This document shows positions 41,141-58,731 of a stretch of DNA of 64,000 nt, piece by piece. The notes beneath the pieces were generated by a model. The model saw nothing but the letters and a program-made list of their open reading frames with translations. It was not told the DNA's origin and ran no database searches. This stretch comes from a virus (lineage: Duplodnaviria > Caudoviricetes). The position numbers and the translations under genes were made by a program. How positions within the stretch are numbered: position 1 is the first letter of the stretch; each line of letters starts with the position of its first letter. The stretch is taken from positions 32,001 through 96,000 of the IMG/VR virus record IMGVR_UViG_3300025389_001172; one strand, given 5' to 3'.

Positions 41141-42112
41141 ATGGTCATTAGTTTCGGAGCTGGTATACAAATCGGAGTAGGCGCACCGAATCCCAACGCT
41201 ATAGGAGTCGGTCTCCCTACGGTTGTCCCTCCATTGACATCATATAGTGTTAACTATTTGGTAGTGGCTGGTGGCGGCGGTGGTGGTGGTTATTATGGAG
41301 CAGGTGGTGGTGCTGGTGGATTGCTCACAGGAACTTTTACGGCTAATGTTGGAAGTACATACACAGTCCGTGTGGGTAGTGGTGGAACAGGTGGTCCAGG
41401 GACAATTCCAGGAGCCGGCGCCACAAGTGGAACTAACTCTACAATAACAGGTACGGGGATCTCTATCGTGACCTACGGGGGAGGATATGGGGGTATTACA
41501 TGCAGTCCTAACTCGTCTGGAGGACCAGGAGGGTCTGGAGGAGGATTTGCAAATTTTACTCCCTTTTTAAGCCCCACGCAGAAAGTTGGTGCAGGCACAC
41601 CCGGCCAAGGTAATCCTGGCGGATCTGGCGGACCAGGCGGGAGCCAGAACACTTACAGAGGTGGTGGAGGTGGCGGTGCTGGCGGTGTTGGTGGTACAGG
41701 AGTTTTTGCCGGCCTTTGCCAGCCTACAGGACACGGCCCAGGACAGAATCATGCAGGAAATGGCGGAACGGGAACCAACAGCAAGATCACAGGAACACCT
41801 ACCTACTATGCGGGAGGTGGCGGTGCTGGTGGTCCAGGAACTGCCTGCTCGCCTGGTACTGCCAGTGGTTATGGCGGACTCGGTGGTGGTGGGGGTCGTG
41901 AAACACCAGGAAAGACCAATACCGGAGGTGGTGGCGGTGGTGGTGCTGGCTATCCTGCAGGAAAAGGTGGTTCTGGTATAGTGGTAATCAGCTACGAATA
42001 CAACTCACAACTGGGCACAGGCGGCAACTCGATCTACAGCACCGCTACGGGATTGACGACCAATACCAATTGGGTCCATGTGTTTACGACAAGCGGATTC
42101 TATATAGCCTAA
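41141..42112 (+). CDS. Glycine-rich virion/fibre-associated protein
   Basis: YLVVAGGGGGG..GGGGAGG, NTGGGGGG, GGSGIVVI, HVFTTSG. Confidence 0.8.
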   Translation: MVISFGAGIQIGVGAPNPNAIGVGLPTVVPPLTSYSVNYLVVAGGGGGGGYYGAGGGAGGLLTGTFTANVGSTYTVRVGSGGTGGPGTIPGAGATSGTNSTITGTGISIVTYGGGYGGITCSPNSSGGPGGSGGGFANFTPFLSPTQKVGAGTPGQGNPGGSGGPGGSQNTYRGGGGGGAGGVGGTGVFAGLCQPTGHGPGQNHAGNGGTGTNSKITGTPTYYAGGGGAGGPGTACSPGTASGYGGLGGGGGRETPGKTNTGGGGGGGAGYPAGKGGSGIVVISYEYNSQLGTGGNSIYSTATGLTTNTNWVHVFTTSGFYIA

Positions 42113-42113
42113 T

Positions 42114-42815
42114 ATGAACATAATATTATATACTCTAATAGTGACGCACATCACCATCATATCAGTGACACTGTATCTGCATCGTGGTCAGGCACACAGA
42201 GGAATCACGTTCCACCCTATCTTAGAACATTTCATGCGTTTTTGGCTATGGCTTACCACAGGTATGATAACCAAACAGTGGGTGGCCATACATCGCAAGC
42301 ATCATCAATACTCAGATAAACCAGGTGATCCACACTCACCTCACGTATATGGTATCAAGAACATATTTTTGAGAGGAGTGTACTATTATTATCTAGCTGC
42401 CAAAGACTCTCGCATGACATTGACCTATGGTCGAGGTACTCCCGATGATTGGATAGAACGCAAGCTATACTCTAAACATAGCCGTCTAGGAGTAACCTTG
42501 ATGGGCTTTATAAATCTAGCCCTATTCGGCCCTTGGGGATTATTAGTATTGTTGGTTCAAATATTTTGGATACCGTTCTGGGCCGCAGGTGTAGTTAATG
42601 GCCTAGCCCATTGGTGGGGTTATAGAAATGGAGAAACTCGTGATAGATCTAGAAATCTTGTACCTATAGATTTTATCGTTGGCGGTGAGCTCTTGCACAA
42701 TAATCACCATCTTGATCCAGCTAATCCTAAAATGAGTCGTCGTTGGTTTGAGTTTGACATTGGTTGGATGTGGTTAGGCATATTTAGAATATTAAGGCTT
42801 GCTAAACTACGTTAA
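42114..42815 (+). CDS. Membrane fatty-acid (delta-9 acyl-CoA type) desaturase
   Basis: His boxes HRGQAH, HRKHH, HNNHH; GDPHSP; EFDIGW. Confidence 0.93.
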   Translation: MNIILYTLIVTHITIISVTLYLHRGQAHRGITFHPILEHFMRFWLWLTTGMITKQWVAIHRKHHQYSDKPGDPHSPHVYGIKNIFLRGVYYYYLAAKDSRMTLTYGRGTPDDWIERKLYSKHSRLGVTLMGFINLALFGPWGLLVLLVQIFWIPFWAAGVVNGLAHWWGYRNGETRDRSRNLVPIDFIVGGELLHNNHHLDPANPKMSRRWFEFDIGWMWLGIFRILRLAKLR

Positions 42816-44855
42816 TCACTTCTCCGTTGCTATCCATTCGCCGTTCCAGTTGGGTGGTAAATCTTGTTGCTTCATAAACTCGCAACGTTCAATCCAAATC
42901 TTGTAGTACTTGTCCATTTGTCCACCGAAGCTGCCTTTTAGTTGTTTACACAGGTCGGCAGCTTCATCAAACTTCTTGGCTTTATATAAGTCATGCATCG
43001 CTTCATGCTGTTCTTGATCCTTACTGTAATCGTTACCTTTGGTACGTAGTGCTGTATAGATCAAGTCCGCCACTGTTTTGCCTTTTGGTTGTAGATTATC
43101 TAACATCAGGTAGAAGAAATCATCTCGAGTACGATTGTAGGTTTCTGCACCGATAATACATAGCACACCATAAGCCTTGCAACGTGCTTCTAGTCGTGCC
43201 GCAGTTGAAACCATATCTCCCAAGATGTCGTAACCGTGTCTATCAGTTGATCCCATCTCACCAATGAAGCCAATACCTGAATTACACCCCCAACCCATTG
43301 CGGCTGGTGGCAGGCCTTTGGCTTCCATGATCTTGGTATACTCATCTACACGGTCCAACATCTCTAGTCCTACTCGAACCATTGTACGAGCGTGGTTGGG
43401 ATCTTCTATAGGAGCACCATGGATGTGCATACTGGCATCGCCCACATACTTGATGATCATACCTTTGTTTTCTATCATTGGCTGGCTGATAGCATCCATG
43501 TAGCCATTCATGTACTGACCGAGGCCTGCTACATCATCACCGTAGTGTTCGCCGATAGGAGTGAATCCACGTAGATCAGAGAACATGACGCTGACATCTT
43601 TACGCACACCACGTTTGATTAAGTCTGGATCTTTTTGTAGCATCTCTACCACTTCTTTAGAGCAGTAGCCGGCAAACTGTTTCTTTATCTGAAGTTTTTC
43701 CAAGTACTCAGCCACAAACTTAACTCCATAAGCATGGAGCATGACAAGGACAAGAGCACCACAGATATAAGCACCATCTCCAAGCCAAAGATTCTGCACA
43801 AAAAGATAACGACTGAGGGCAACACAACCAATAGAACTAATAATACCAAAAAGAATGCCAACATAGGTCCACCTCGTTAAAAATAACAGTATAATGCCTA
43901 ATCCTGCCAAGGTCAATATCTCAGCCCCATCTGCCCAATCTGGACGCTGTATCGTCACACCATTGATCATTGTGGCCAACACAGCGGCCTGTACATCTGA
44001 CGGCCATACCGCACCCTTGGATGTTGGAACAGGATTACCTAGGCCCGCGGCTGTTACACCCACTATGACCACAGCACCGCCTAAATCTTTGGGTAGATCT
44101 ACAGCACTCACTGACCTGCTTTGCTGGCTCCAATCTATCCAGATACGACCAAAATTATCTGTGGTAATAGGACCAAACTTTGGAATACGCATCTTTTCTA
44201 CACCCAGCTCGTTCAGTTTGACCTGCACTGTGGTGTCCTGTGCCAGTACACGTAGAGCCTCCATGCTTAGGCTAGGATATAGTTTACCATCTATGGTAGC
44301 TATCAAAGGTATGCGGCGATTCACACCATCTATCTCAGGTAGTGTGTTTACTGTGCCTATGCCCACTGCTGATTCTTCTAGTTCTGGACGATTGGCGATC
44401 ATGCCCGGATAGGTTATGATACGATCTAGGTATTCAGGACCTAGTACTGCAGACCCTGGAGGTCTGGGTTCATTCTTGGTTTTCTGTGAGGGCATGTTGG
44501 GCAATACCACAGGATACTCAGCGAGTGTTTTTGCCAGTTGAGCATCCTTGCCCATACGATCTGGTTCGGCCATGAGCACGTTGAATACTACAAGTCCAGC
44601 CCCACGTCGATACAAATCTCGTATTAGTTTAGCATAACGATCTCTGGGCAGAGGCCATTGTCCATATTTGTCCAGAGTGGCTTCATCTATGTTGACCGTG
44701 ACTATGTTGTTTTCAGTAGGTGCTTTGCTGGTTATCAGAGTATCAAAATAACGCAAGCGGACACTTTCTACGAATGAAGGATCCCATATTCTAATGGCCA
44801 GCATGACGGCCAGTGTAATCAGGGCCATCCAAGGATTCAGTAAGATTTTTTTCAT
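42816..44855 (-). CDS. CHASE2-domain class III adenylate/guanylate cyclase
   Basis: IDEATL..GQWPLPR, DGVNRR (CHASE2); three TM helices; FSDLRGFT, KYVGD, GDMVSTAARLE. Confidence 0.93.
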   Translation of the reverse strand: MKKILLNPWMALITLAVMLAIRIWDPSFVESVRLRYFDTLITSKAPTENNIVTVNIDEATLDKYGQWPLPRDRYAKLIRDLYRRGAGLVVFNVLMAEPDRMGKDAQLAKTLAEYPVVLPNMPSQKTKNEPRPPGSAVLGPEYLDRIITYPGMIANRPELEESAVGIGTVNTLPEIDGVNRRIPLIATIDGKLYPSLSMEALRVLAQDTTVQVKLNELGVEKMRIPKFGPITTDNFGRIWIDWSQQSRSVSAVDLPKDLGGAVVIVGVTAAGLGNPVPTSKGAVWPSDVQAAVLATMINGVTIQRPDWADGAEILTLAGLGIILLFLTRWTYVGILFGIISSIGCVALSRYLFVQNLWLGDGAYICGALVLVMLHAYGVKFVAEYLEKLQIKKQFAGYCSKEVVEMLQKDPDLIKRGVRKDVSVMFSDLRGFTPIGEHYGDDVAGLGQYMNGYMDAISQPMIENKGMIIKYVGDASMHIHGAPIEDPNHARTMVRVGLEMLDRVDEYTKIMEAKGLPPAAMGWGCNSGIGFIGEMGSTDRHGYDILGDMVSTAARLEARCKAYGVLCIIGAETYNRTRDDFFYLMLDNLQPKGKTVADLIYTALRTKGNDYSKDQEQHEAMHDLYKAKKFDEAADLCKQLKGSFGGQMDKYYKIWIERCEFMKQQDLPPNWNGEWIATEK

Positions 44856-44863
44856 AGTAATAT

Positions 44864-45523
44864 TTATAGCAGGCGTTCTAGCCAGCGTTGATTTACAGCC
44901 TTGAGATCTATCAGTGTGACTACATCTGCTGTGTGGAATACAGGATCCCAGCTGGGGTCACTGACAACACAGGCACCTAGTTTTTGATAGACCTGTAGGA
45001 GTTTGGGTATAGCACCTGTTGAAGTATCTTCTTCAAGATAGGGATTCAAAGGCACAGCGTGAGCTCCATCTAGATATCTATAGGTTTCTCTCCAATGATC
45101 ACGTGCGGCGATCACAGCGGTTTCGCTAGGCTTAAGGCTGGTAGCTCCCATGATGTATTCACAGTTTAGGCGCTTGGATAGATCGAACAGATTACCCCAC
45201 AGCATGGGAATCACTGCGGCGTTGCGATAGTCTGGATGCACAGCGGCACGCCCTATCTCTAGTATCTTTGAGTGATCTAATTTTAGGTTGGCTAGATCAA
45301 ATTCGCTTTCTGTATAAAATCCTAGATCACTGTTGACTATGGCTCTGTAGTAGCCCACTACCTTGCGATCACTGACAGCTATCACGTGATAGGCATCTTG
45401 ATCCCATTGATCTTCATCTTGTTCAGGATCTATACCAAAAGCTGACTGCATCATCTTGGCTCGGAATTTAAGAGCAGATTCTATATCATCTTCATATCCT
45501 AGTATTTTGATCTTTAATGACAT
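44864..45523 (-). CDS. GNAT acyltransferase, ornithine-lipid synthase OlsB-like
   Basis: D..D..AYH, VVGYYR, FYTESEFDL, LEIGRAAVHPDYR, PKLLQVY..LGA, DPVFHTAD. Confidence 0.8.
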   Translation of the reverse strand: MSLKIKILGYEDDIESALKFRAKMMQSAFGIDPEQDEDQWDQDAYHVIAVSDRKVVGYYRAIVNSDLGFYTESEFDLANLKLDHSKILEIGRAAVHPDYRNAAVIPMLWGNLFDLSKRLNCEYIMGATSLKPSETAVIAARDHWRETYRYLDGAHAVPLNPYLEEDTSTGAIPKLLQVYQKLGACVVSDPSWDPVFHTADVVTLIDLKAVNQRWLERLL

Positions 45524-46407
45524 TACTGTATCTTGAACCTTACGTATTCTGTGATAAGGTCAGCTACATCTACATCACAATAGGTTTCAAAACCCTTGAA
45601 TCCTGGATTTGAGTTGGCTTCGCATACACGGAACCCACGGTCATCGAACAGCAGATCTACACCAGCTATGTCTAGATTAAGAGCTCGGGCGGTTTCACGA
45701 GCGATGTAGTCAATTTCATCTGTGATCTCATATCGGCTACCAGTACCGCCACCTGTTATGTTAGCACGGAAATCACCTTCTGGTGCTGTGCGTAGCATGG
45801 CCCCCATGACCTTACCACCTATGACCAACACTCGCAGATCCTCACCTGGGCGATCACCTAGATATTCCTGCACGATCATGGTCTTCTTGTTGCCTAGATT
45901 TTCTACGAACTCTACTAATTTCTTGTAGTCTTTCTTACGCTCGCAGAGATGCACGCCTTCGCCATATGAACCTGTTACCACTTTGACCACACAGGGGAAT
46001 CCTATGTTGTCCGTCACCAGGCGATCTTCTATGGGCCAACGTACCAACATGGTGTTGGGTATGGCTATGCCCGCACGGCTCAGGATCTGGCTACTGCGAA
46101 GTTTGTCTTTGACAGTTTCTATGGCCATACTGCCATTTACACAGGGAACACCTGCCTGTTCGAAATGTCGTATAACAGCCAATTGGAAAGGCAGGATGCC
46201 AGCACCTAGCCTGACTAGGACTAATCGTGGCAGTTCCATGTCCTGACCTTTGTATTTGATACCACTCTTGATGTTGCGATCCACGATGATATCAAAATCA
46301 TCAGGATGGCAGGCACGAGCTTCTATACCTTTGGCAGCGAAGCTTTCTATGAGTCTAGTAGACTCATATTCGTTCCGTTCGTTTTTAGTCAAGATCAATA
46401 CTGTCAT
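45523..46407 (-). CDS. rimK: RimK-family ATP-grasp amino-acid ligase
   Basis: DKLRS, FPCVVK..GSYGEGV, VQEY, DLRVLVIG, DFRANITGGG, AGVDLL, EANSNPG. Confidence 0.9.
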   Translation of the reverse strand: MTVLILTKNERNEYESTRLIESFAAKGIEARACHPDDFDIIVDRNIKSGIKYKGQDMELPRLVLVRLGAGILPFQLAVIRHFEQAGVPCVNGSMAIETVKDKLRSSQILSRAGIAIPNTMLVRWPIEDRLVTDNIGFPCVVKVVTGSYGEGVHLCERKKDYKKLVEFVENLGNKKTMIVQEYLGDRPGEDLRVLVIGGKVMGAMLRTAPEGDFRANITGGGTGSRYEITDEIDYIARETARALNLDIAGVDLLFDDRGFRVCEANSNPGFKGFETYCDVDVADLITEYVRFKIQ

Positions 46408-47156
46408 TTACCGCTCCATTCTATTATTTCCCAGGTGCCATCCCAGTTCTCTACCAAGGCTGTACAGCTCTCAACCCAATCCCCGTCATTCATATAGACA
46501 ACACCATCTATATCTCGGATCTCAGCTGTATGTATGTGTCCACATATTATACCATCATAGCCCTTGGTTTTGCAATAGTCTGCGAGTAATTTCTCAAAAT
46601 TTAATATATAACCCACTGCCTGTTTGGTGTTCTGTTTTATCCATTTACTGATGCTCCAGTATGGCAGGCCCATACGGCTACGGATCATGGCCCAATAGTC
46701 GTTTAGTCTCACTATGAGATCATATAACCAATCGCCGACGTGCATCAATAGTCTACCGCTAGATACCTGCATGAGACCATCAAACAGATCTCCGTGTATG
46801 ATTAGATACCTACGTCCATCTAATCCGATATAATCCTCACGATTGGAAAATGTTAGACGTCCTAGATTGGGTATGTAGTGTAACCATTTGCGTATAGCTT
46901 CATCGTGATTGCCTGCTATATAGAATACTCGAGTACCTTTCTTGGCCAGTTTCAGTACCCTGCGAATTACGTCTGAATGACTCTGTGGCCAATACCAATT
47001 TTGTTTAAGTCTCCATCCATCTACTATGTCACCTACTAGGTATAGGTTGTCTGATGAATTACGTTTAAGGAAATCCAGTAGTAGTTCTGCTTTACAGCCT
47101 CTCGATCCTAGATGTATGTCGCTGATAAAAATAGAGCGATAATTTGGCTTTTTCAT
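46404..47156 (-). CDS. UDP-2,3-diacylglucosamine hydrolase (LpxH)-like metallophosphoesterase
   Basis: SDIHLG, GDIVDGW, GNHD, HGDLFD, CGHIH, NDGDWVES. Confidence 0.85.
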   Translation of the reverse strand: MKKPNYRSIFISDIHLGSRGCKAELLLDFLKRNSSDNLYLVGDIVDGWRLKQNWYWPQSHSDVIRRVLKLAKKGTRVFYIAGNHDEAIRKWLHYIPNLGRLTFSNREDYIGLDGRRYLIIHGDLFDGLMQVSSGRLLMHVGDWLYDLIVRLNDYWAMIRSRMGLPYWSISKWIKQNTKQAVGYILNFEKLLADYCKTKGYDGIICGHIHTAEIRDIDGVVYMNDGDWVESCTALVENWDGTWEIIEWSGK

Positions 47157-47399
47157 ACCAATATTTATCGCCCTATATATTACTGTACTTTTTCTGTGTG
47201 TTTATGATTGAGACTTTTCTTTAGGATCTTGAACCAGATCTTTTTGACCTTCTCTAGATTGTGTTCAATTTCAGCCTTGTTCAACTTTGTTACTAATTTT
47301 TGGATTTTCATAATCGGCCCTCCTTGGATAGATATTTATAATAGAAAAACGGAAACAATATTAAACTATCGTTTCCGTTCTGTTACTGACGCTACAGAT

Positions 47400-49331
47400 T
47401 TAGAATGCTATCTGTACTGAAGCCTGTGCTGAATTGTTAACGAAGCCATTAAATCTTTGGCTGTTGAATCCCAGACGAACCTGTGTACGATCCTTGACAT
47501 TGGTACTGAGTCCAGCACTGACTGTGTTAAGATCCTGTGTATTCCTAGATACTTCAGCATAGACATTGGTACTAGGTAATAGCGGTATGACCTGCTCAAC
47601 TCTCACACCTGATTCATAGCTGGTCTGGCTCTGACGTATTGGATCATAGGTCACAGCAGTCATATCACTACCAGCATCGGCTGCACCGTTGGTCTTGGTA
47701 AGATCATAGCGTGCTCCAACGAATGGACGTATGCCACGATAGGCCGGAGCATAGGCACGACCGTTGACCCAAAGATCAACACCGTTAGTGCTGGCACTGT
47801 TAGCATAGCCTAATTCAGGTAAACTGTGTGCTGTGGAATATCTGTTTACAGCACCTGCGACATCTGCTTTGAATAACCAATCTTTATAACTCTTAAGAGC
47901 ATAAACACCTAGAGCATCTTTCTGTAGTTGTCCACTGCTGTTATCAGAACTCATGTTGACCTGCACACGATGATACTGTGCTCCGACTGTTAGGTCAGAA
48001 CTAATACGGTGATCATAGCCCACACCAATACGACTTGTGTTGAAACTGGTGCTGTCTGGAGTATTGCTACGACTTCCCTGTACATTTACCCAATCAACTC
48101 CGTCACGTCCATTCCAGCCCTGTGTACCATCAGGGTGACGACCTAGTATGTCGCTGTCTAGTCCATGGTTAAGGGCACCGTTGATCTGTCCTAATTTGGC
48201 CAACTGATCGATACGTGTTGTGTAGTCTTGTGGTACTGCTACTACTCCTGTGGCGCTACCATTGGTAGTAACTGTGACCACATTGTTGGCCACCGAACTA
48301 GTCACTACTGGTGTTCCGTTGGTTACCACTACGCTACCGTCACTGTAGGTATCTGTGGTAACAGGTGTTGTTGTAACTGTAGTTGTAACAGGAGTTGTGG
48401 TAACTGTGGTCAATACCCAAGGAGTCACTGTTGTAGTTGTTGTAGTCCTAGTAACTGTTAGTACCTGAGGTGTTTGACCTCTACGAGCATCAGTGAGAGC
48501 CACAGTGCTTGTTGGAGCACCATAGGCTGTGCTGTTGGTAACCACCGGGGTACCGTTGACTGAACTCGAACTCACAGAATTAGCAGTAGTTGAACTCACT
48601 ATAGTTGGAGCTGGAGGTGGAGGTGGATTGGTATTTCCAGCATTACTACCCACGGCTGGAGTGGCCAACGTGGTAAATCCTGAACCTGCTCTCATGCTAC
48701 AGTTTGCCGCGGCTATAGTCACGTCAGCACAGGCGCCAGCATAGACGCCTATCTGGACCCCACTGTTAACTGTGTTATTACCATAAACACTGAATGACAG
48801 TGAATATGTGATTCCAGAAGTAAGGCTAACACCTTGATAGATACCATCGAAACTACCAACGGCACCGTCGATCCAAGAACCTGCTGTTGAGGTGTTGACT
48901 CCTTGTCCACCGTTATAAACCACATTCTGCCAATTCTGTCCTGGTGCTTGCCAAGTACCTGCGGCAGCCGGGGTAGTACCATTCTGATACCATACACCCC
49001 AATACTGCGGAGCCTGTAGTCCATTTTGTCCAGGTATCGCTCCACCTGTGGCAAAATTACCATTGGTGACTAGATTACTACCGCCACCTGTGTTGAGTAA
49101 TACGTTGCCCAGTGTCCAATAGGCCGGATCCTGTCTAAAAGCAAATCCCACATAGTTAGCACCTGTTGTTGATGGTGAGAATGTGTAGGTATAGTTCTGC
49201 CAAGTGTTAGCAGAAGTATATGCTATACCTGTGCTACTGCTGATATTGTCTACTGTGGGTAATAGCTGTGCTATACCAGTGGTTGATACAAAGATCAACA
49301 AGGCCGCAATGGCCCTTTTGATTAATTTCAT
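47400..49331 (-). CDS. Autotransporter-like outer-membrane protein
   Basis: Signal peptide, beta-sandwich passenger, poly-Pro linker, Thr/Val-rich stalk, amphipathic beta-barrel ending in Phe (VQIAF). Confidence 0.75.
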   Translation of the reverse strand: MKLIKRAIAALLIFVSTTGIAQLLPTVDNISSSTGIAYTSANTWQNYTYTFSPSTTGANYVGFAFRQDPAYWTLGNVLLNTGGGSNLVTNGNFATGGAIPGQNGLQAPQYWGVWYQNGTTPAAAGTWQAPGQNWQNVVYNGGQGVNTSTAGSWIDGAVGSFDGIYQGVSLTSGITYSLSFSVYGNNTVNSGVQIGVYAGACADVTIAAANCSMRAGSGFTTLATPAVGSNAGNTNPPPPPAPTIVSSTTANSVSSSSVNGTPVVTNSTAYGAPTSTVALTDARRGQTPQVLTVTRTTTTTTVTPWVLTTVTTTPVTTTVTTTPVTTDTYSDGSVVVTNGTPVVTSSVANNVVTVTTNGSATGVVAVPQDYTTRIDQLAKLGQINGALNHGLDSDILGRHPDGTQGWNGRDGVDWVNVQGSRSNTPDSTSFNTSRIGVGYDHRISSDLTVGAQYHRVQVNMSSDNSSGQLQKDALGVYALKSYKDWLFKADVAGAVNRYSTAHSLPELGYANSASTNGVDLWVNGRAYAPAYRGIRPFVGARYDLTKTNGAADAGSDMTAVTYDPIRQSQTSYESGVRVEQVIPLLPSTNVYAEVSRNTQDLNTVSAGLSTNVKDRTQVRLGFNSQRFNGFVNNSAQASVQIAF

Positions 49332-49387
49332 ACGTCGCTCCCGTAATGATGTTAGTGTGCTATTATTTACTGCTTATATTATTATAA

Positions 49388-49957
49388 TTAATTGCGTATA
49401 TAACTCCAGCCCGATCCACAAGGATTGCACTGTATGTTCATGCCGCCTTGACTGGCCTGTGTGGGATTGGTCTGCTGAATGGTTACACCAGCACCAGTGG
49501 CACCATTTAGCCAGAGATTGAATGTTTTATCTGCACCGGCACCGCCACTTTGTGTGACATCTACAGTATTGTTATTATTAGTTGTACCTGCAACACCGGT
49601 TATGGTCATGCTGTGATTACCGGCACCGGTCTGCGTGATACCTATGTTGTTGGCCGATCCGTTTAGGTTCTGTATGTTGGCAGTATGATTGCCTGTGCCG
49701 TCTTGGAACATGATAACCCCATTGTTAATACCCGACGGTATGTCTACTGTGGCAGTTTTAGCACCTGTACCCTGCTGTGTTATGTTTATCGTAGTGTTGT
49801 CCGCAGGACTGGTTTTACCTAAGGTTAATGTTGCTGAATGCCCTGATCCATCTTGCGTGATTGAGATGGTGTTGTTGTCACCTACCTGATCTATGTTAAC
49901 AGTATTATCTGCTGCCCACACATTGAAACAGACTAGAGCTAATAGAAATCGTTTCAT
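49388..49957 (-). CDS. Curlin-repeat protein (CsgA/CsgB-like)
   Basis: Signal peptide; repeats such as NTVNIDQVGDNN and NTISITQDGSGH. Confidence 0.75.
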   Translation of the reverse strand: MKRFLLALVCFNVWAADNTVNIDQVGDNNTISITQDGSGHSATLTLGKTSPADNTTINITQQGTGAKTATVDIPSGINNGVIMFQDGTGNHTANIQNLNGSANNIGITQTGAGNHSMTITGVAGTTNNNNTVDVTQSGGAGADKTFNLWLNGATGAGVTIQQTNPTQASQGGMNIQCNPCGSGWSYIRN

Positions 49958-51066
49958 TTTTGTATTAAGGTAATGGTGGTGTTACTGCCCGAGTTTACTC
50001 GGTTCTTAAAATCTAAAGGGCCCTGTGTCATATAAATGGTGCTGTTTTGATTTTTAGGTACAGTTACACTCATTACGTCACTGCCGTTATCCCGACTTAG
50101 AGTTACAGTATTGTCATCTACTGTGGCTACTATGCCAGATATAGCAGTATAATCTGGCAATAGTCCTGATTTGGTATTGTTCAGCAGGTCTAGCTGTGCA
50201 GCCAACTGTGCATTGATAATGTCCAAGATATTGGCCAAGAACGTTTGATCCAGGAAATTGCGGCTCAGTGTATCTTTGAATAGGTCTTTTTCCTGTGCAT
50301 CAAACGCATTAACCAGGCCGGTTTCTTTTAAGAAGTCTACATCAAGTGCACCTTTAGAGTCTACTCGAACTTGTGTTTTTTCGTTGTTTTGTTGTAGTTG
50401 TTTAGGTGGTGCTACTATTAGCATATTGTTGATAGCATCTTCGCCTATTCGCAACACCACTGGTTTCAATGGCATGACACCGCGAGTTTCTACTTTGGTC
50501 GCTTGAAATGCCTGATCTAGCAGAACTTTACCCACATCGGTTATAACCTCAATCGAGCCAGTTTTACAATCACGTTCTACATCTCGATATCCAGCCGGGC
50601 AACTGGGTAATAGTATGATGGTACTAGCACCTAACTCGTCTACAGTGGCACTGAAATCAGTACCTCGTACAGCAATAGTGGCACTAGGAGTATTGAGAGC
50701 AACCTTACTAGGATCGTTTTTAGCAATAGCACCTGACGCATAACGTACAGTACCCGATGCCATATTAAGCGCCAGCTTGCCTACAGCAGGTCGTTTGGGA
50801 TCGTAGACAAAATCATCAATGACTAACCGGCTGTTTTCGTTTACCTGTACTCGAGTATCATCCTGGAAGGTTATTCCCACCTTGCCCCGGGCTGTCCGTA
50901 TCGCATCCTGCATCTCCACCCCCGAGCCCCGAGTTCCCTCCAAGGTCGTCTTCGACCGTTGTATCGAAGGCGGCACATTAACCTGTTCCGTTATGGTCCC
51001 TATCGCCGCGATGGTGTCTTGCGATGAGATCAGCAAGAGTACGCATAATACTTCCTTCCATATCAA
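49954..51066 (-). CDS. FecR-domain periplasmic protein
   Basis: DAIRT, ITFQDDTRVQVNENSRL, GTVRY, TPSATIAVRGTDF; start probably TTG at 51066 rather than 51198. Confidence 0.85.
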   Translation of the reverse strand: MIWKEVLCVLLLISSQDTIAAIGTITEQVNVPPSIQRSKTTLEGTRGSGVEMQDAIRTARGKVGITFQDDTRVQVNENSRLVIDDFVYDPKRPAVGKLALNMASGTVRYASGAIAKNDPSKVALNTPSATIAVRGTDFSATVDELGASTIILLPSCPAGYRDVERDCKTGSIEVITDVGKVLLDQAFQATKVETRGVMPLKPVVLRIGEDAINNMLIVAPPKQLQQNNEKTQVRVDSKGALDVDFLKETGLVNAFDAQEKDLFKDTLSRNFLDQTFLANILDIINAQLAAQLDLLNNTKSGLLPDYTAISGIVATVDDNTVTLSRDNGSDVMSVTVPKNQNSTIYMTQGPLDFKNRVNSGSNTTITLIQK

Positions 51067-51233
51067 TCTCCTCTTAAAAACCATGAACATTTCTGTAGTT
51101 CTTTCATTATCTGATCGGCCGTGGTACCGTGTACACGAGCTGCCATCTCCACGAAATCTAACCAACGCTGTGCCGCATTGGTCTGTCCGTCGGCCCATTG
51201 CTGATACATATTTTTAAGTGTCCACTGATCCAT
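51063..51233 (-). CDS. Small hypothetical protein (56 aa, MDQWTLKNMY...)
   Basis: Manual translation; fills the gap between curlin and FecR. Confidence 0.45.
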   Translation of the reverse strand: MDQWTLKNMYQQWADGQTNAAQRWLDFVEMAARVHGTTADQIMKELQKCSWFLRGD

Positions 51234-51234
51234 A

Positions 51235-52017
51235 TTAGTGATTGTTTTGATTTATAGTCATACTACCTCCACTGCCAGCGATCTTTAGGTTAGCAATATT
51301 ATCACCACCAGTACCAGTCTGTGTAACACCTACAGTATTACCAGAGCCGGTAATATCAATAGTAGATTGATGACCGTTTACTCCACCGGTTTGCAGGACA
51401 TTGACTGTGTTTGTAGCACCTGCTATGGTCACAGCACTGGTTCCACCTGGACTCTGTAGATCCATGCTGACAGTATTACCGCCCCCGCCGGTTATAGCCA
51501 AGGTACCTGTGATATTATCACCTAGAGCACCAATGGTAGCTGAGTTATTGGCTCCACCAGCTGTGTTGACCGTTATAGTGTTGCTAGCACCAATGGATTT
51601 AATATCGGCCGAGCTGGCATTACCTGATTGTGTCACCCCAATGTTGTTGCCTGAGCTGTTGGTTGTGTTACTACCAAGCTGTATAGTAGCTGAGCTATTC
51701 ATACTGTTACTAACGCTGTAGTTAACTGTACTAGCTGCCACTGATGTGTCAGTCTGTATGCCCAGTCGTAGTGTATTACCGCTACCGACCTGACTTACCG
51801 ATACCTGATTACCATCTCCGTAGATTTTGGCAGGTGTAGTAGAACTTGTACCTACACCTGGTAGGCCCCTAACCACGTTGCCTGCTCCATCCTGTGATAT
51901 GGCTACTATGGCGTTATCGCCGGCCTGATCAATATAGATACTATTGTCTGCGGCCCAACTGTTTATGTTCATAATGGCTAGCATTAGTAGTGTTATTTTA
52001 GCTAGTTTTGTTTTCAT
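51235..52017 (-). CDS. Curlin-repeat protein (CsgA/CsgB-like)
   Basis: Signal peptide; NSIYIDQAGDN, NQVSVSQVGSGN, NTVGVTQTG repeats. Confidence 0.75.
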   Translation of the reverse strand: MKTKLAKITLLMLAIMNINSWAADNSIYIDQAGDNAIVAISQDGAGNVVRGLPGVGTSSTTPAKIYGDGNQVSVSQVGSGNTLRLGIQTDTSVAASTVNYSVSNSMNSSATIQLGSNTTNSSGNNIGVTQSGNASSADIKSIGASNTITVNTAGGANNSATIGALGDNITGTLAITGGGGNTVSMDLQSPGGTSAVTIAGATNTVNVLQTGGVNGHQSTIDITGSGNTVGVTQTGTGGDNIANLKIAGSGGSMTINQNNH

Positions 52018-52037
52018 TTTGGTTTCCTTACGGTCTG

Positions 52038-53108
52038 TTAGTTGGCCGCTCTTAATCGCTCTCTTTTTACGAATCCTTTTACTCCTATCGCTATTTCTAC
52101 TTCTACTACATCCTTCACGTCTGTGTCTTTAACCGTTGCTACAGTGTTGGCTGGTACTACTACGAAAGGTCCATATAAGGGTCCTTCGAGATTTGATTTA
52201 CGTTTATAAACTTTGGTATTAGCCGCAAACACCATCTTTACTATTTTGGGTTCTTCTGCTTTTTTGACTTCTGGAACTACTACTACTGGAGGTGGAGGCG
52301 GTGCTACAGGTGCCTGCACAGATTCAGGTTTACGATAGTCCCAGATACCCTTGCGCTCACCTTCCTTGATTAGTTCTACCACAGCGGCTTCGATCGTGGC
52401 CTTGACAGCTAGCGTACCTGGTTCGTTTATGGTTAATCCTGCTTCAGCTTCAAATGCCTGTGTACCGTCGTCTAGGAATTTTAACACGGCAAAACTGTCG
52501 GCAGTGCTGTACACTATCTTGGTCACGTGTACAGCCGCCAAGACCTTGCCGGTATTGACACTTATGGCTCGCAAACTGATAGTCACTGTGTCTTTGCTGT
52601 ACTGTGTCTGTGTGCCTATACCCAGGAAACGATGTGCGGCTCCGCCTGATTCAGATCCCGAATCATAACCAATGATACCACCTTCCATGATGATGCCGGC
52701 AAACTGCATGGGCATGAGCGGTTTGGCATTGACACCTTCATAGGCTTCACGCATCTGGCGTATGATTGTGCGTTCTTTGGTTAAAGCATCTATATTGATT
52801 CTTTCTACAACATCAAACCATTGCCCGTGCCCCACATCCTGTAGGGCCTTGATCAAGAACACTTCGGCCCCTTGTGTGACTGCTGTACTCAGACTAGCAA
52901 TACCCGATACTGGTTTGCGTTGTCCGGTTTTATCAGCAAAATTATACACTGCCACGCTGAGCTTTCGCCCCTCTGGTGGTGGTATCGAATCAAACTCTTT
53001 TTGCATGCGATTTGGCACCACTTCGGGTTGGTATTCAAAACCGGCTTTTTGAACTATAGCACAACCTGCAAGTGCAAGTATCATGACGAGGGATAGAATT
53101 TTTTTCAT
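52038..53108 (-). CDS. csgG: Curli secretion channel lipoprotein CsgG
   Basis: Lipobox LAGC, VAVYNFADKTGQRK, STAVTQG, WFDVVER, ERTIIR, EGGIIGYD, NEP, AIEAAV-like motif. Confidence 0.93.
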   Translation of the reverse strand: MKKILSLVMILALAGCAIVQKAGFEYQPEVVPNRMQKEFDSIPPPEGRKLSVAVYNFADKTGQRKPVSGIASLSTAVTQGAEVFLIKALQDVGHGQWFDVVERINIDALTKERTIIRQMREAYEGVNAKPLMPMQFAGIIMEGGIIGYDSGSESGGAAHRFLGIGTQTQYSKDTVTISLRAISVNTGKVLAAVHVTKIVYSTADSFAVLKFLDDGTQAFEAEAGLTINEPGTLAVKATIEAAVVELIKEGERKGIWDYRKPESVQAPVAPPPPPVVVVPEVKKAEEPKIVKMVFAANTKVYKRKSNLEGPLYGPFVVVPANTVATVKDTDVKDVVEVEIAIGVKGFVKRERLRAAN

Positions 53109-53109
53109 A

Positions 53110-53565
53110 TTAAAATTGGAATTGTCCTAGAGGTACTGTGACCTGTGTTTGATTGCCCACTGTGTCAGTCACTGTGAGGTATACATTTGAGCTATCTTTG
53201 GTCCAGAATATGGTATTGCCTTCAAAGTTCAATGACCCACTTGTACTACCACCCGATGCAAACATGGCAGTGGCTAGATTCTGGCTGATCTGTGCGTAGA
53301 TACGGCTTTCTAGATTGTTCAAGAACTTGGCCAAATTGGTGTTCTGTGCGGCTGCCGCCTGTGCCTGTAGTGCAGCCTGTATGTCTTTGGCTATCTGTTG
53401 CTGACGTGTGTATTCCTGGTTTTCTATGGTCAACACATGACTGCTGTAACCGTTGCCGTTAAAACTAGGACTTTTGAAACTGTAATCAGCCATTGGTGTA
53501 GAAACGGCTAGGGGCGTCCAGGATAGGATACCAGCAGTAAGTAAGATTTTGTATAGTGTATTCAA
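53110..53565 (-). CDS. csgF: Curli assembly component CsgF
   Basis: Signal peptide; YSFKSPSFNG (CsgF F.NP.FGG-like), FLNNLESR, G.QTQVTVP; adjacent to csgG. Confidence 0.82.
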   Translation of the reverse strand: MNTLYKILLTAGILSWTPLAVSTPMADYSFKSPSFNGNGYSSHVLTIENQEYTRQQQIAKDIQAALQAQAAAAQNTNLAKFLNNLESRIYAQISQNLATAMFASGGSTSGSLNFEGNTIFWTKDSSNVYLTVTDTVGNQTQVTVPLGQFQF

Positions 53566-53613
53566 GGTTTGACTCCTATTAGTATTTAACAGGAATCTGA
53601 TGTTTTTATTGTG

Positions 53614-54669
53614 TTAGATTATATCTTTGGGTATAGGAAGTTGATTTCCTTCTTGATCTACGTAAATAACATCTTTTGTTCCTGATTTTCCAAATGCTCG
53701 TGTAGCAGTAGCCGCGTGTACTCCTAATCCTCTAATACCAGTTTTAGATCTATCATTTTGATTTCTGATGGTAAAATACATCATATGACTTTTTGGAACA
53801 TCTGCTAATTTTGTAATTACAGCATGACACTCTATTTCTATAAAGTTTCCATTTTGTACAAAATGATGTGGTTGGAAATCTTGTATAACTATACCCCCAT
53901 GTGGATTGATATCAGTCCCAAATATAGTTTTAAGTACATCTTCAGGAGTAGGTTGAACAACAATTTCTCTATCAATCCTGTAAATTGGAACAATCTGACC
54001 TTTAATTTCTCTATCTTTAAGTTTAGACAATTTAACCAAACCGTCGTTTATTAATTTTTTTATAATTGGAAACGCTCTTGGTCCAAATAAAGAATCAGCA
54101 GTTTCCCAATTTTCAGCATCGGTTTGTTTAATAGAAACAGGAATTCTTCTATCTGGACTAAAAAGTGCTACATCACCCTTCAATCCGCCTTGAGTTTTAC
54201 TTCCAATATGTTCAACTCTGTTAACTTTTGGAACATCCAAAATTCTTCCTTGATCATCCTTAAATCTCACGTTTACCGAGCCAGATGCATCGATTTCTTT
54301 TTGTATTAATTTTGCTAGAGCTATTTCATTCGCCTTACCACTATGTTTAGTCCCTTGTGTTTTATTATTTTTGTAGGCAATAGTGAACGGGCTACCATCA
54401 ATAACGATACCCCCTAAACTAGAAGTATTTTTATTAGGATCAAAATGTGTATTACGACCTAATTCTTTAGCCAATACAGGTACTAATTGTTGCATGGCAT
54501 TTAATCGCCATTTGTTTTGATCCTTATCCGGAAAATCAATTAATGGTAATATTTTGTTGCCATTTTTTTTGATACCTTTAATATCCGGAACAATCCTATT
54601 GAGAACTAACTCTAAATCGTTATAGGTTAACGAATCTGATATTTCAAAAAGTAAGTCAATTATACGCAT
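53614..54669 (-). CDS. AT-rich protein with putative PD-(D/E)XK nuclease motif
   Basis: GKANE...KGDVAL..VSIK; visibly more AT-rich than its neighbours. Confidence 0.5.
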   Translation of the reverse strand: MRIIDLLFEISDSLTYNDLELVLNRIVPDIKGIKKNGNKILPLIDFPDKDQNKWRLNAMQQLVPVLAKELGRNTHFDPNKNTSSLGGIVIDGSPFTIAYKNNKTQGTKHSGKANEIALAKLIQKEIDASGSVNVRFKDDQGRILDVPKVNRVEHIGSKTQGGLKGDVALFSPDRRIPVSIKQTDAENWETADSLFGPRAFPIIKKLINDGLVKLSKLKDREIKGQIVPIYRIDREIVVQPTPEDVLKTIFGTDINPHGGIVIQDFQPHHFVQNGNFIEIECHAVITKLADVPKSHMMYFTIRNQNDRSKTGIRGLGVHAATATRAFGKSGTKDVIYVDQEGNQLPIPKDII

Positions 54670-54679
54670 AATACGTTAT

Positions 54680-55351
54680 TTACCCAAATTCAGGAAACAG
54701 TATCTCATCTACGAATTTGCGTATTACAGTTTCTTCTACACCCATTGAGACCATACTGCGTACTACATGCGGATTCTGCTTTTGATAACGGCAGTATCGA
54801 TCTTGCTCCGCACGATAATCCGCATCTTCTTGCTTATAGCTTCCTATATTGGCCAGATAGTAGTGTAGGCTTTTCATCGCTATATGGCACAGTGATTCTA
54901 GTTCTGCTTCTTCATTGACATTGCCCGCGGCTATCATGCTAGGACTGAATATGGCTCGGGCCCAATCGGGTAATTCTCTAGGCTTGTTCCACTGTAGATC
55001 TTCTGTTTCTTCGGCAAACCATGACATCATAGGATGTTGAGGATCCGCAGTAGCTGAGAAATCTAGGAATGTGCCTGTGATCTTGTTTGGACCGCAGACA
55101 GCATCAAATCCCCAGATCGGACCTGGATCATTTAATTTTGGAAATATAGTGCAGTGTAAGATGTATATTTTATGACTCTGTCGTTTATCTACGATTTCTA
55201 CGTGGGCTCTACGGTATGAACCGCTGTGGAATATGGCATTGTGCCAATCGTACCCTTCGATATGATTATTAAACAGTTTACCTGATGTGGCTAATTTATA
55301 TTCTATATCTCGGGCTAATTTTTCTATACGGTCTTGTACATTAACAGTCAT
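54680..55351 (-). CDS. Ferredoxin-dependent bilin reductase (PcyA/PcyX-like)
   Basis: RRAHVE, ILHCTIFP, PIWGFDAV, KITGTFLDFS, RELPDWARAIFSP, YCRYQKQN. Confidence 0.85.
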   Translation of the reverse strand: MTVNVQDRIEKLARDIEYKLATSGKLFNNHIEGYDWHNAIFHSGSYRRAHVEIVDKRQSHKIYILHCTIFPKLNDPGPIWGFDAVCGPNKITGTFLDFSATADPQHPMMSWFAEETEDLQWNKPRELPDWARAIFSPSMIAAGNVNEEAELESLCHIAMKSLHYYLANIGSYKQEDADYRAEQDRYCRYQKQNPHVVRSMVSMGVEETVIRKFVDEILFPEFG

Positions 55352-55868
55352 AGGTCCCTAGTATCTTGATAGCCCAATCAAAAGCCACGTTGGCTTCATC
55401 AGCCATACTGTCATCTAGCATACCACGCAATACGAACATGAGGTCTTTGCTGTTTTCGAACTCTAGATGACTATGTGGAGCATCTATGATCTTCTTGATC
55501 ATCTGTCCGCCAAACATATCACCCATGTGCCAGGTATACAGGTGTGCCAGCACTGCGTTAGGATCGGTAAGGTCTCTGATATAACCGCAGTAGTCTGTGG
55601 TCTCTAGCTTTAAGAAATGTCGGTCATCTCTGCCCTGCATCATTTCTTCATAGTCTGCCAGTATGAGTTCTGCACGTTCGATGCCTGGGAGATCGTCTAA
55701 CAGCCCTAGAGCCTGGCAGCGAATCTCGATACTCTTGTACCAAGAGTATTTTTGATAGGTATAATCGATCCATACCTCCATCGGCAGTGTGTGATCAAAT
55801 ACGGCCTGCATGAATCGAGTACTTTCTGCGGCCTTGTGGCGTTCTTGTGTTAGTTCTTTGAGGCTCAT
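55341..55868 (-). CDS. Heme oxygenase
   Basis: LKELTQERHKAAE (proximal His), AHLYTWHMGDMFGGQMI, EANVAF. Confidence 0.9.
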   Translation of the reverse strand: MSLKELTQERHKAAESTRFMQAVFDHTLPMEVWIDYTYQKYSWYKSIEIRCQALGLLDDLPGIERAELILADYEEMMQGRDDRHFLKLETTDYCGYIRDLTDPNAVLAHLYTWHMGDMFGGQMIKKIIDAPHSHLEFENSKDLMFVLRGMLDDSMADEANVAFDWAIKILGTYDC

Positions 55869-56176
55869 TCTGGTACTGCCTTGATCAATAATGGGAAGTT
55901 ATTAGCACGGCTTAGCTCAGTGGCATCTATGACTTTCTGCTCAGCTATTTCGTGCGTGTAGATGCCCGCTACTCCGGAGCCTTCATCGTGTATCTGTTGG
56001 GTGATCCTGATCGCCGAATCAGTGGTATGTCTAAATATTCTAACCAGTAATAGAATTACAAATTCCACGGTTGTATAATCGTCATTGAGGATTACCACTT
56101 TATACCTGCTGGGTTCTTTGATCCGTTTATCGGTAGTGTTGTCTACGATTACTACTTCTTCTATGTCAGTTGCCAT
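55865..56176 (-). CDS. clpS: ATP-dependent Clp protease adaptor ClpS
   Basis: YKVVILNDDYTTVEFV, IHDEG.GVAG, EIAEQK, FPL. Confidence 0.93.
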   Translation of the reverse strand: MATDIEEVVIVDNTTDKRIKEPSRYKVVILNDDYTTVEFVILLLVRIFRHTTDSAIRITQQIHDEGSGVAGIYTHEIAEQKVIDATELSRANNFPLLIKAVPE

Positions 56177-56200
56177 GATCTGTGTCGGTAGATAAAATTA

Positions 56201-56224
56201 AGTTGGGGGAGGATTCCCCCAACT
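56201..56224 (-). terminator. Hairpin/terminator after hsp20
   Basis: 10-bp stem AGTTGGGGGA/TCCCCCAACT followed by TAATTTT on the minus strand. Confidence 0.55.
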
Positions 56225-56227
56225 GTG

Positions 56228-56662
56228 TCACTCAGCCTTGATTTTTAATATTCTCGGCTTTAATGCTTCTGGAATAACACGAGTAAGTTCTATGGTCAGC
56301 ACACCATTTCGTATGCGACCTTCACCTACTTCCATGTGTTCTGCCAGTGTCCAGCTACGAGTGAAATCACGTGTAGCCAGGCCACGCTGTAGATACACAG
56401 TATCTTCATCGTCGGCACCTTTTCGATGGCCTTTTACAACCAACTGATTTTGATCAACTTCGACTGCAATCTCGTCTGGTTCAAATCCTGTCACAGCGAT
56501 CTCGATCTCATATGAGTTCTCATCGTGTTTCAATATATTGAACGGAGGATAGTTGTTGTTGATTTGATTTGCAAAGCGTGCCTCGAAGTTATCGAATAAG
56601 CTGTCAAATCCTAATAGTGCTCTGTTTAGAGCGTTGGTGTCGAAACGTACTAATTGTGTCAT
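56228..56662 (-). CDS. Small heat-shock protein Hsp20 (IbpA-like)
   Basis: GFDSLF, NYPPFNI, IEIAVTGF, YLQRGLATRDF, NGVLTIEL, PEALKPR. Confidence 0.95.
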   Translation of the reverse strand: MTQLVRFDTNALNRALLGFDSLFDNFEARFANQINNNYPPFNILKHDENSYEIEIAVTGFEPDEIAVEVDQNQLVVKGHRKGADDEDTVYLQRGLATRDFTRSWTLAEHMEVGEGRIRNGVLTIELTRVIPEALKPRILKIKAE

Positions 56663-56746
56663 TGTTTTCTCCTTGTTTAAGTAAGATATATGTAAGGCCC
56701 ATTAGGTACCCTACATATATATTTATACACTGATTTATTACCCCTG

Positions 56747-58642: not shown

Positions 58643-58731
58643 TAGTTTTCTCCTTATTAAGTGAGTATATCCGGGCACTATGCCCATTCGTAGCATCCAT
58701 TAGGTATACCACACCTTTATTTAGTATACAT

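Follow-up and report, generated by a model that had tools for sequence, protein, structure and literature searches.

Early reports of curli secretion genes in phages concerned csgF and csgG only (PMC9004378). Wittmers et al. (2022, PMC9599517) then described, in myovirus and podovirus pelagiphages, a type VIII secretion system (T8SS) region with CsgF, CsgG and CsgA/B that is followed by FecR and often by a further CsgA/B gene and an adenylate cyclase; they reported that this viral cassette originated in alphaproteobacteria, has been transferred across families, is distributed globally and is transcribed. Here we analyse a related locus in the IMG/VR viral record IMGVR_UViG_3300025389_001172, which comprises 141 kb and has an estimated completeness of 39%. 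Bases 32001-96000 of the record (64,000 nucleotides, hereafter the window) contain a block of eleven open reading frames (ORFs) on the minus strand, at 42816-53565, that encode, in 5' to 3' order, CsgF, CsgG, curlin A, a 56-residue protein, a FecR-fold protein, curlin B, an autotransporter, a metallophosphoesterase, a RimK-family ligase, a GNAT-family acyltransferase and a CHASE2 class III adenylate cyclase. With this block, the already published viral T8SS-FecR-adenylate cyclase cassette is found in a new phage lineage.

The initial annotation of the window had listed this gene run from the sequence alone. All eleven ORFs are present on the minus strand at the coordinates it gave, and Pfam matches support the naming of csgF, csgG, two curlins, FecR, a metallophosphoesterase, RimK, a GNAT and a CHASE2/class III cyclase. 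Taken as a whole, the gene identities and the joint occurrence of the genes have stood, whereas a curlin-like FecR terminus, a Fec-type transducer, an argument from missing csgE, csgC and csgD, and the implied novelty have not. As to the last, FecR and the cyclase were already part of the cassette as described in 2022 (PMC9599517), which is also annotated in the GenBank records of cultured phages.

The same order, CsgF-CsgG-curlin-FecR-curlin-cyclase, is found in the Methylophilales phage Melnitz, in whose GenBank record FecR and the cyclase are annotated by name, and in the Pelagibacter phage HTVC008M. Both phages share all six core genes with the window and neither has csgE, csgC or csgD; identity between the window proteins and theirs amounts to 43% for CsgG, 37-42% for FecR and 37-44% for the cyclase. 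The window differs from both in the linker and SH3b-like tail of its CsgG, in the autotransporter and the metallophosphoesterase-RimK-GNAT genes that precede the cyclase, and in an Asn to Ser exchange in the cyclase itself. In the podovirus cassettes a histidine kinase gene precedes csgF (PMC9599517), which is not the case in the window. With the curli systems of E. coli and Salmonella (csgBAC-csgDEFG) the window shares CsgG, of which residues 1-262 align to the E. coli CsgG structures (E 1.1e-45), the CsgF motif and secreted subunits with curlin repeats; unlike those systems it has no match to CsgE or CsgC, carries other residues at the pore constriction, contains additional FecR and cyclase genes, and is phage-borne.

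The carrier also differs from those described. The pelagiphage cassettes reside in Kyanoviridae or in HTVC023P-type podoviruses, whereas the window, which also holds tail-fibre genes, a clamp loader and a DnaK-like gene, derives from a jumbo phage that is distantly related to the PA5oct group, and not from a T4-like pelagiphage. The grounds for this assignment are the clamp loader, which shares 57% identity with its counterpart in PA5oct-type Pseudomonas jumbo phages, and the length of contigs related to the window phage, up to 265 kb. Near-identical DNA was sought in the phage collection and not found there.

A scan of viral contigs with CsgG yielded 31 related viral loci (individual loci are given below as L numbers). 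FecR follows csgG in all 28 of these that extend far enough, and every locus with sufficient further sequence has a CHASE2 cyclase, in most cases immediately behind the second curlin. The core order csgF-csgG-curlin-FecR-curlin-cyclase thus recurs in every related viral contig of sufficient length, with FecR located between the two curlin genes and not beside the cyclase. This conservation is far beyond chance. The initial annotation had named a failure of FecR and cyclase to co-occur with csgG in related phages as evidence against a joint system; such a failure is not seen.

We consider it probable that the published cassette in the window represents working T8SS fibres together with a FecR-CHASE2 sensor pair that controls cyclic AMP (cAMP), and that the block is of cellular, Caulobacterales-like origin and circulates among aquatic phages.

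Pore, fibre subunits and FecR-fold protein

The gene csgF (53110..53565, minus strand, as for all genes of the block) encodes 151 residues from a TTG start, including a signal peptide, and matches the Pfam CsgF model with E 3.6e-13 (50.2 bits, cut-off 25.8). CsgF is the outer-membrane pore cap and nucleation factor of the T8SS, and the N-terminal motif of the F-x-x-P-x-F-x-G-x-G type is kept. One nucleotide separates csgF from csgG, and csgF lies directly before csgG in each of the 31 related viral loci. CsgG (52038..53108, 356 residues, lipobox LAGC) matches its Pfam model with E 3.8e-43 (147.7 bits, cut-off 20.8). At its C-terminus it has a linker rich in Pro, Lys and Glu and an SH3b-like tail of about 70 residues (about 52038-52334). 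The corresponding tails in relatives match Pfam SH3_4 above cut-off (L017:10955-11194, L019:10994-11233, L010:10922-11161). The tail in the window has no Pfam match and is a putative SH3 domain that has diverged too far for detection by Pfam. CsgG of the jumbo-phage lineage carries such a tail, which is absent from the CsgG proteins of bacteria, Melnitz and HTVC008M; it would be positioned at the periplasmic mouth of the CsgG pore.

Two secreted proteins with curlin repeats are encoded in the block. Curlin A (51235..52017, 260 residues) scores above the Pfam cut-off for Curlin_rpt and appears to be a fibre subunit; an alignment of 20 viral homologues displays a signal peptide, a start at ADNSIYIDQ and repeated G-x-x-N...Q units. 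Curlin B (49388..49957, 189 residues) matches the same model with E 2.4e-9. A curlin of this second type follows FecR in most related loci, and elsewhere longer curlin fusions occur, for example of PA14 with curlin, which would suit the display of adhesion domains on fibres. At the position of the second curlin, L032 encodes a protein with a PA14 lectin-type domain and a curlin repeat (L032:13180-14496), and proteins of 577 and 374 residues with weak curlin-repeat matches are encoded at L016:13198-14931 and L013:13528-14652, respectively. The signal peptides that the initial annotation had reported for CsgF, both curlins and the autotransporter, as well as the lipobox of CsgG, can be read from the translations. 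The curlins could also be thought of as virion components, a role with which the Sec signal peptides on both proteins conflict.

Judged by these signal peptides and the lipobox, the Sec system would export CsgF, the lipoprotein CsgG and the two curlins in the infected cell. By analogy with the other members of their families, CsgG and CsgF would then form an outer-membrane pore, through which the curlins would exit and polymerise into surface amyloid fibres.

CsgE and CsgC have no match in the 141-kb record, at its completeness of 39%, and CsgD was not searched for. The lack of these three had been put forward as an argument against ordinary curli. It does not serve as such, as a chromosomal operon of Henriciella (see below) has the same reduced set, which is the reported alphaproteobacterial pattern (PMC9599517). 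The missing CsgE and CsgC therefore fit the reduced alphaproteobacterial type of curli system. The absence of a CsgE gate and the altered constriction residues have a bearing on another explanation, namely that CsgG and CsgF make a gated hole in the outer membrane that times lysis or release, as was proposed for Melnitz, with FecR and the cyclase as regulators and the fibres irrelevant. That Melnitz cultures did not clump (PMC9004378) is also in line with this idea. We nevertheless regard it as quite improbable: two intact secreted curlin-repeat genes are present in nearly every copy, the same reduced set is found in a bacterial chromosome, where a timing of lysis makes no sense, and the lectin-type fusions of PA14 with curlin suggest an adhesive function.

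The FecR-fold protein (49954..51090, 378 residues) consists of a signal peptide, a FecR domain with two invariant Cys residues, a helical linker modelled with low confidence and a C-terminal beta-sandwich; the Pfam FecR match has E 3.1e-10 (40.8 bits, cut-off 24). The homologues place its start at the ATG at 51090, while the longest ORF, to 51198 (Pfam FecR E 4.3e-10), adds 36 unconserved codons and overlaps the 56-residue gene. All 17 homologues begin with a short cleavable signal peptide that is directly followed by the FecR domain. Because of this arrangement the protein is predicted to be exported and soluble, and to have neither an anti-sigma domain nor a membrane anchor. The initial annotation had drawn on FecR domains as relays of signals across the periplasm; with no cytoplasmic anti-sigma domain and no membrane span in any of the 17 homologues, the protein is not a membrane-spanning transducer of the Fec type.

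An AlphaFold2 (AF2) model of the protein resembles the periplasmic domain of PupR (6ovm; Z 9.2, root mean square deviation 3.2 over 125 residues) and a Bacteroides anti-sigma factor (4m0h; Z 8.6), and the anti-sigma matches cover the N-terminal 200 residues. For the last 60 residues the model shows a small sandwich of the Ig-like type, with generic and weak structural matches (Z 3.0-3.7). This C-terminus had been described as curlin-like, a description that is contradicted both by the Ig-like sandwich and by a profile-profile comparison with the curlin alignment (hhalign probability 0.7%, over 11 columns). A likeness to the anchoring domain of an RTX adhesin (5ix9, Foldseek E 0.02) was likewise set aside: VIA places this match on the first half of the FecR domain (Z 6.8), and we take it as a generic likeness between sandwich folds.

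The name of the FecR domain invites the idea of a system for the uptake of iron or a cofactor, with CsgG as import channel and FecR as a regulator of the iron-citrate type, and this was one of the options raised in PMC9599517. Sigma70_r2 and Plug, as markers of a FecI-type/extracytoplasmic function sigma factor and a TonB-dependent receptor, have no match in the 141-kb record at its completeness of 39%. In addition, the FecR-fold protein is without the cytoplasmic anti-sigma domain and membrane anchor, and its conserved partner across bacteria is CHASE2 and not FecA/FecI. An uptake function is therefore very unlikely.

Cellular relatives and origin

On a 396-kb contig of a Henriciella chromosome, csgF, csgG, a gene for a 504-residue curlin-like protein, FecR and a CHASE2 cyclase gene are found between ordinary metabolic genes. 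This operon, which also occurs in Caulobacteraceae metagenome-assembled genomes (MAGs), agrees with the window in gene order and domain content, and its cyclases branch beside the viral clade. Unlike the window, the Henriciella operon encodes a single long curlin-like protein and no second curlin, and its CsgG is without a tail. Its FecR protein counts 346 residues and matches that of the window to about residue 290; overall, identity between the operon and the window is 34-45%.

In a tree of the cyclases, those linked to a T8SS make up one clade (support 100). Within it the viral sequences form a single clade (support 99), in which Melnitz is nested among IMG/VR contigs and outside of which the Caulobacterales sequences are placed. 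Because there is one viral clade with the Caulobacterales outside, the tree topology fits a single capture and a later spread between lineages of phages, to which jumbo phages can now be added. A viral-type cassette is also present on contigs from MAGs (L033-L044) that are labelled as Actinobacteria, Flavobacteriaceae, Pelagibacter, Luteolibacter, Legionellales, Polynucleobacter, Rhodobacteraceae, Pirellulales and Bacteroidetes. Their cyclases group within the viral clade, and the contigs are probably of phage origin and were binned with bacteria. The MAG-labelled fragment closest to the window, with a FecR identity of 66%, is from isolate Loc090519-5m, a designation that suggests a water body sampled by depth. 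A freshwater host is likely for the window phage, where the habitat of the relatives is judged from sample title codes alone.

FecR and CHASE2 also occur together without curli. Among 65 more distant bacterial FecR loci, 22 lack csgG and have a gene for a CHASE2 cyclase at a distance of at most 10 kb. The two constitute a recurrent and widespread bacterial pair. Described examples are a CHASE2 cyclase clustered with a FecR-domain protein in Campylobacterota (PMC9239204) and the BiofilmReg LysM-FecR protein with a CHASE2 histidine kinase in Burkholderia and Pseudomonas (PMC5192318). In S. meliloti, the FecR-domain protein SMc02177 is among the cAMP-regulated targets, and the cyclase CyaD1 becomes constitutive once its CHASE2 domain is deleted, which makes CHASE2 an inhibitory module (PMC5498481). 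The S. meliloti CHASE2 cyclases CyaD1, CyaD2 and CyaK, the only ones known to have been studied, need the outer-membrane barrel NsrA and answer an extracellular protein signal (PMC13001267). As in the window, the bacterial pairs consist of an exported FecR-fold protein that is encoded beside a CHASE2 receptor; unlike the window, they are without curli genes and have variable outputs and partners (phosphodiesterase, TPR protein, LysM, histidine kinase). The papers that describe these pairs report no binding between FecR and CHASE2.

The CHASE2 cyclase and its possible relation to the pore

The cyclase (42816..44855, 679 residues) matches Pfam CHASE2 with E 5.3e-43 and Guanylate_cyc with E 2.2e-13. 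Its layout comprises a transmembrane span, a periplasmic CHASE2 domain (residues 15-322), three further transmembrane spans, the Guanylate_cyc domain (419-564) and a conserved helical C-terminal tail, where the spans are hydrophobic stretches read from the sequence. The sensor domain is recognised as CHASE2 here; PMC9599517 does not mention it. Invariant residues are the metal-binding Asp427 and Asp473, Lys469 and Arg554, and the second specificity position is an Asp. The adenine-type Lys/Asp pair, together with the metal and arginine residues, makes cAMP the predicted product and output. It would be read by a CRP-family regulator of the host, since proteins that bind cyclic nucleotides were found neither in the record of the window nor in those of five related phages.

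The viral cyclases are mosaics at the level of domains. The cyclase of L003 is 81% identical to that of the window in CHASE2 and 47% in the catalytic domain, and those of L010 and L016 are 75-76% identical in CHASE2 and 94% in the catalytic domain. Three catalytic subtypes can be distinguished, two of which carry a Ser at the position of the transition-state Asn. In L005 (15426-18389), and in the same way in L006, the gene is split into an ORF of 333 residues for CHASE2, an ORF of 83 residues, a NUMOD3 homing endonuclease gene and an ORF of 342 residues for the cyclase domain. The break in the mosaics coincides with the site of the homing endonuclease in L005, and no Rfam match to a group I intron was found at this split gene. 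Across loci, the identity of the CHASE2 domain tracks that of FecR (rho 0.56) and CsgG (rho 0.50), and not that of its own catalytic domain (rho 0.17).

A sensor pair is most likely formed by the exported FecR-fold protein and by CHASE2, the periplasmic domain of the inner-membrane cyclase; in bacterial loci without curli genes the two are observed to be encoded side by side, and the proteins would be expected to bind each other. What this pair detects may be the condition of the pore or the fibre, as suggested by the position of FecR between the curlin genes, the correlation of CHASE2 with FecR and CsgG, and the precedents for FecR and for CHASE2. PupR binds an outer-membrane transducer with its periplasmic domain, and for FecR folds binding to periplasmic domains of outer-membrane proteins is known. 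For CHASE2, the step from NsrA to CyaD1, CyaD2 and CyaK (PMC13001267) is an experimental precedent for a relay from the outer membrane to a CHASE2 cyclase. Of all steps in our reading, the monitoring of the curli pore or fibre has the weakest footing; it rests on gene order and co-inheritance. The more specific proposal that FecR physically bridges the curli pore (at the CsgG vestibule, the SH3b-like tail or a curlin in transit) and CHASE2 is tentative, and we would not expect it to hold.

A number of observations weigh against the reading as a whole. The cyclase gene of the window is located 4.5 kb from curlin B and beyond a terminator-like hairpin (47381-47346, minus strand), a pattern match with a 15-pair stem and a T run, 3' of the autotransporter gene. 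In L030 and L036 the cyclase gene is on the opposite strand. The constriction residues Tyr/Asn/Phe of E. coli CsgG are Val/Ser/Leu in the window, and the FecR model has a mean pLDDT (predicted local distance difference test) of only 60. In the cyclase subclade of the window the transition-state Asn is replaced by Ser, which may lower the predicted rate, whereas other viral copies keep VNLASRLE. The search of the six phage records, up to 74% complete among the five related ones, yielded no cyclic nucleotide-binding protein as a receiver for the cAMP. Since CHASE2 makes up the 5' part of its gene, simple linkage by distance could account for its correlation with FecR and CsgG. We know of no experiment on any copy of the viral curli-FecR-cyclase cassette. 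Finally, neither fibres nor clumping were seen in Melnitz infections (PMC9004378).

Because of the terminator-like hairpin after the autotransporter gene, the transcript of the cyclase probably includes the RimK block and not the curli genes, and the eleven-gene run probably gives more than one transcript. Together with the variable cargo that parts the cyclase from the rest in the window, the hairpin agrees with a view in which two independent cassettes are merely co-inherited and exchange no information. The curli fibres would then serve aggregation ('sibling capture') or the blocking of other phages, and the FecR-CHASE2 pair would sense an unrelated periplasmic cue and reprogram host metabolism via cAMP. 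The wide occurrence of FecR-CHASE2 pairs without csgG (also in PMC9239204 and PMC5192318), the inversion of the cyclase gene in L030 and L036, and the separate history of the catalytic domain are in line with this view as well. On the other hand, the genes stay linked all the way from Caulobacterales chromosomes to three phage lineages, at protein identities of 37-45%, and FecR is embedded between the curlin genes rather than placed beside its cyclase. We therefore consider two unconnected cassettes unlikely and favour T8SS fibres accompanied by a FecR-CHASE2 pair that may monitor them.

Inserted genes, neighbours and significance

The interval between FecR/curlin B and the cyclase is a variable slot that tends to hold envelope or secreted proteins. 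Its contents include the PA14-curlin fusion in L032, the long curlin-containing proteins in L013 and L016 and a DUF481 protein in L005, and furthermore a non-specific endonuclease (L007), a GH19 enzyme (L016) and a GT4 glycosyltransferase (L020). In the window, the autotransporter, the metallophosphoesterase-RimK-GNAT block and the 56-residue gene are lineage-specific additions of this kind.

The first of these additions (47400..49331, 643 residues) has a signal peptide, a head rich in Trp and Gly, a stalk rich in Pro and Thr and a 12-strand barrel. No Pfam model matches it, the Autotransporter model included. An AF2 model of its C-terminal 279 residues (pLDDT 80) contains one helix and the 12-strand barrel, for which the best match is the NalP translocator (Foldseek E 1.6e-17, template modelling score 0.79); the translocators of EstA, EspP, BrkA, Hbp and AIDA-I match as well. 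The terminal residue is Phe, and the ESM Atlas neighbours are autotransporters. By its modelled fold the protein is classified as a type Va autotransporter, in support of what the initial annotation had called it. It is absent from all 31 related viral loci and a large protein search returned five homologues only, so that the gene is a local insertion outside the conserved core. The autotransporter in the window and the PA14-curlin fusions in relatives point to a putative role in adhesion.

The metallophosphoesterase (46404..47156; Pfam Metallophos E 1.2e-15) had been called LpxH-like. The enzyme class holds and the LpxH label is weak: the LpxH models score far below the NCBIfam cut-off, and the best PDB sequence matches are all LpxH, with E 5e-6. 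The protein was also considered as a cAMP phosphodiesterase and rejected, its only likeness being the weak one to LpxH. The RimK-family ATP-grasp glutamate ligase (45523..46407) is well supported (Pfam RimK E 6.4e-47; NCBIfam rimK_fam 223.6 bits, cut-off 143.4). For the GNAT protein (44864..45523; Pfam Acetyltransf_5/FeeM E 1.1e-17), the assignment to the N-acyl amino acid synthase type stands, whereas the OlsB label is likewise weak, with OlsB models far below the NCBIfam cut-off; matches to this gene are lacking in the related loci, and it is found on the contig of the window only. We regard all three as accessory genes. The metallophosphoesterase-RimK pair recurs between the second curlin and the cyclase in three separate types of contig (window 45523-47156, L004:13802-15441, L020:14535-16161, and also L021), and in L016 a metallophosphoesterase gene is found after the cyclase.

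Situated between the genes for curlin A and FecR, the 56-residue ORF (51063..51233) shares 28 nucleotides with the start of the FecR gene and encodes a protein without signal peptide and without any Pfam match even at E 10. It is kept at the same place in eight related loci, at 49-82% identity, and absent in others.

Upstream of csgF, at 53614-58696, are a DnaK-like gene, genes for heme oxygenase and bilin reductase, and a gene for a viral hypothetical protein of 351 residues; the same order precedes csgF in many related contigs (L010-L027). The 351-residue protein was considered as a counterpart of the podovirus histidine kinase and rejected, having no Pfam match at E 0.01 and only viral hypothetical proteins as ESM Atlas neighbours. 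Because a second terminator-like hairpin is found at 56224-56201, the genes from heme oxygenase through the autotransporter may form one transcription unit. RNA families of Rfam have no match at 42000-56500 of the window. On the other side, a convergent gene for a DesA-family fatty acid desaturase (42114-42815, plus strand; 373.6 bits against a cut-off of 400) abuts the stop codon of the cyclase, a position that is kept in L010, L013, L020 and L024.

The locus extends the known range of the cassette, one of the envelope-acting gene blocks that are most widespread in aquatic phages, from phages of SAR11 and OM43 to a jumbo-phage lineage. In the jumbo-phage lineage it is decorated with an SH3b tail on the pore and an autotransporter, and with lectin-curlin fusions in relatives. 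The operon in Henriciella offers a route to genetics if a cultivable member or relative carries the five genes. To our knowledge, CHASE2 is a sensor domain with almost no known ligands, and it would gain a defined input if the coupling to curli is real. Should FecR indeed bridge pore and cyclase, then cAMP would report the load of curli secretion, the assembly of fibres or the contact with another surface, the cassette would be a phage-carried surface-sensing circuit, and the widespread FecR-CHASE2 pair would have an input assigned to it for the first time.

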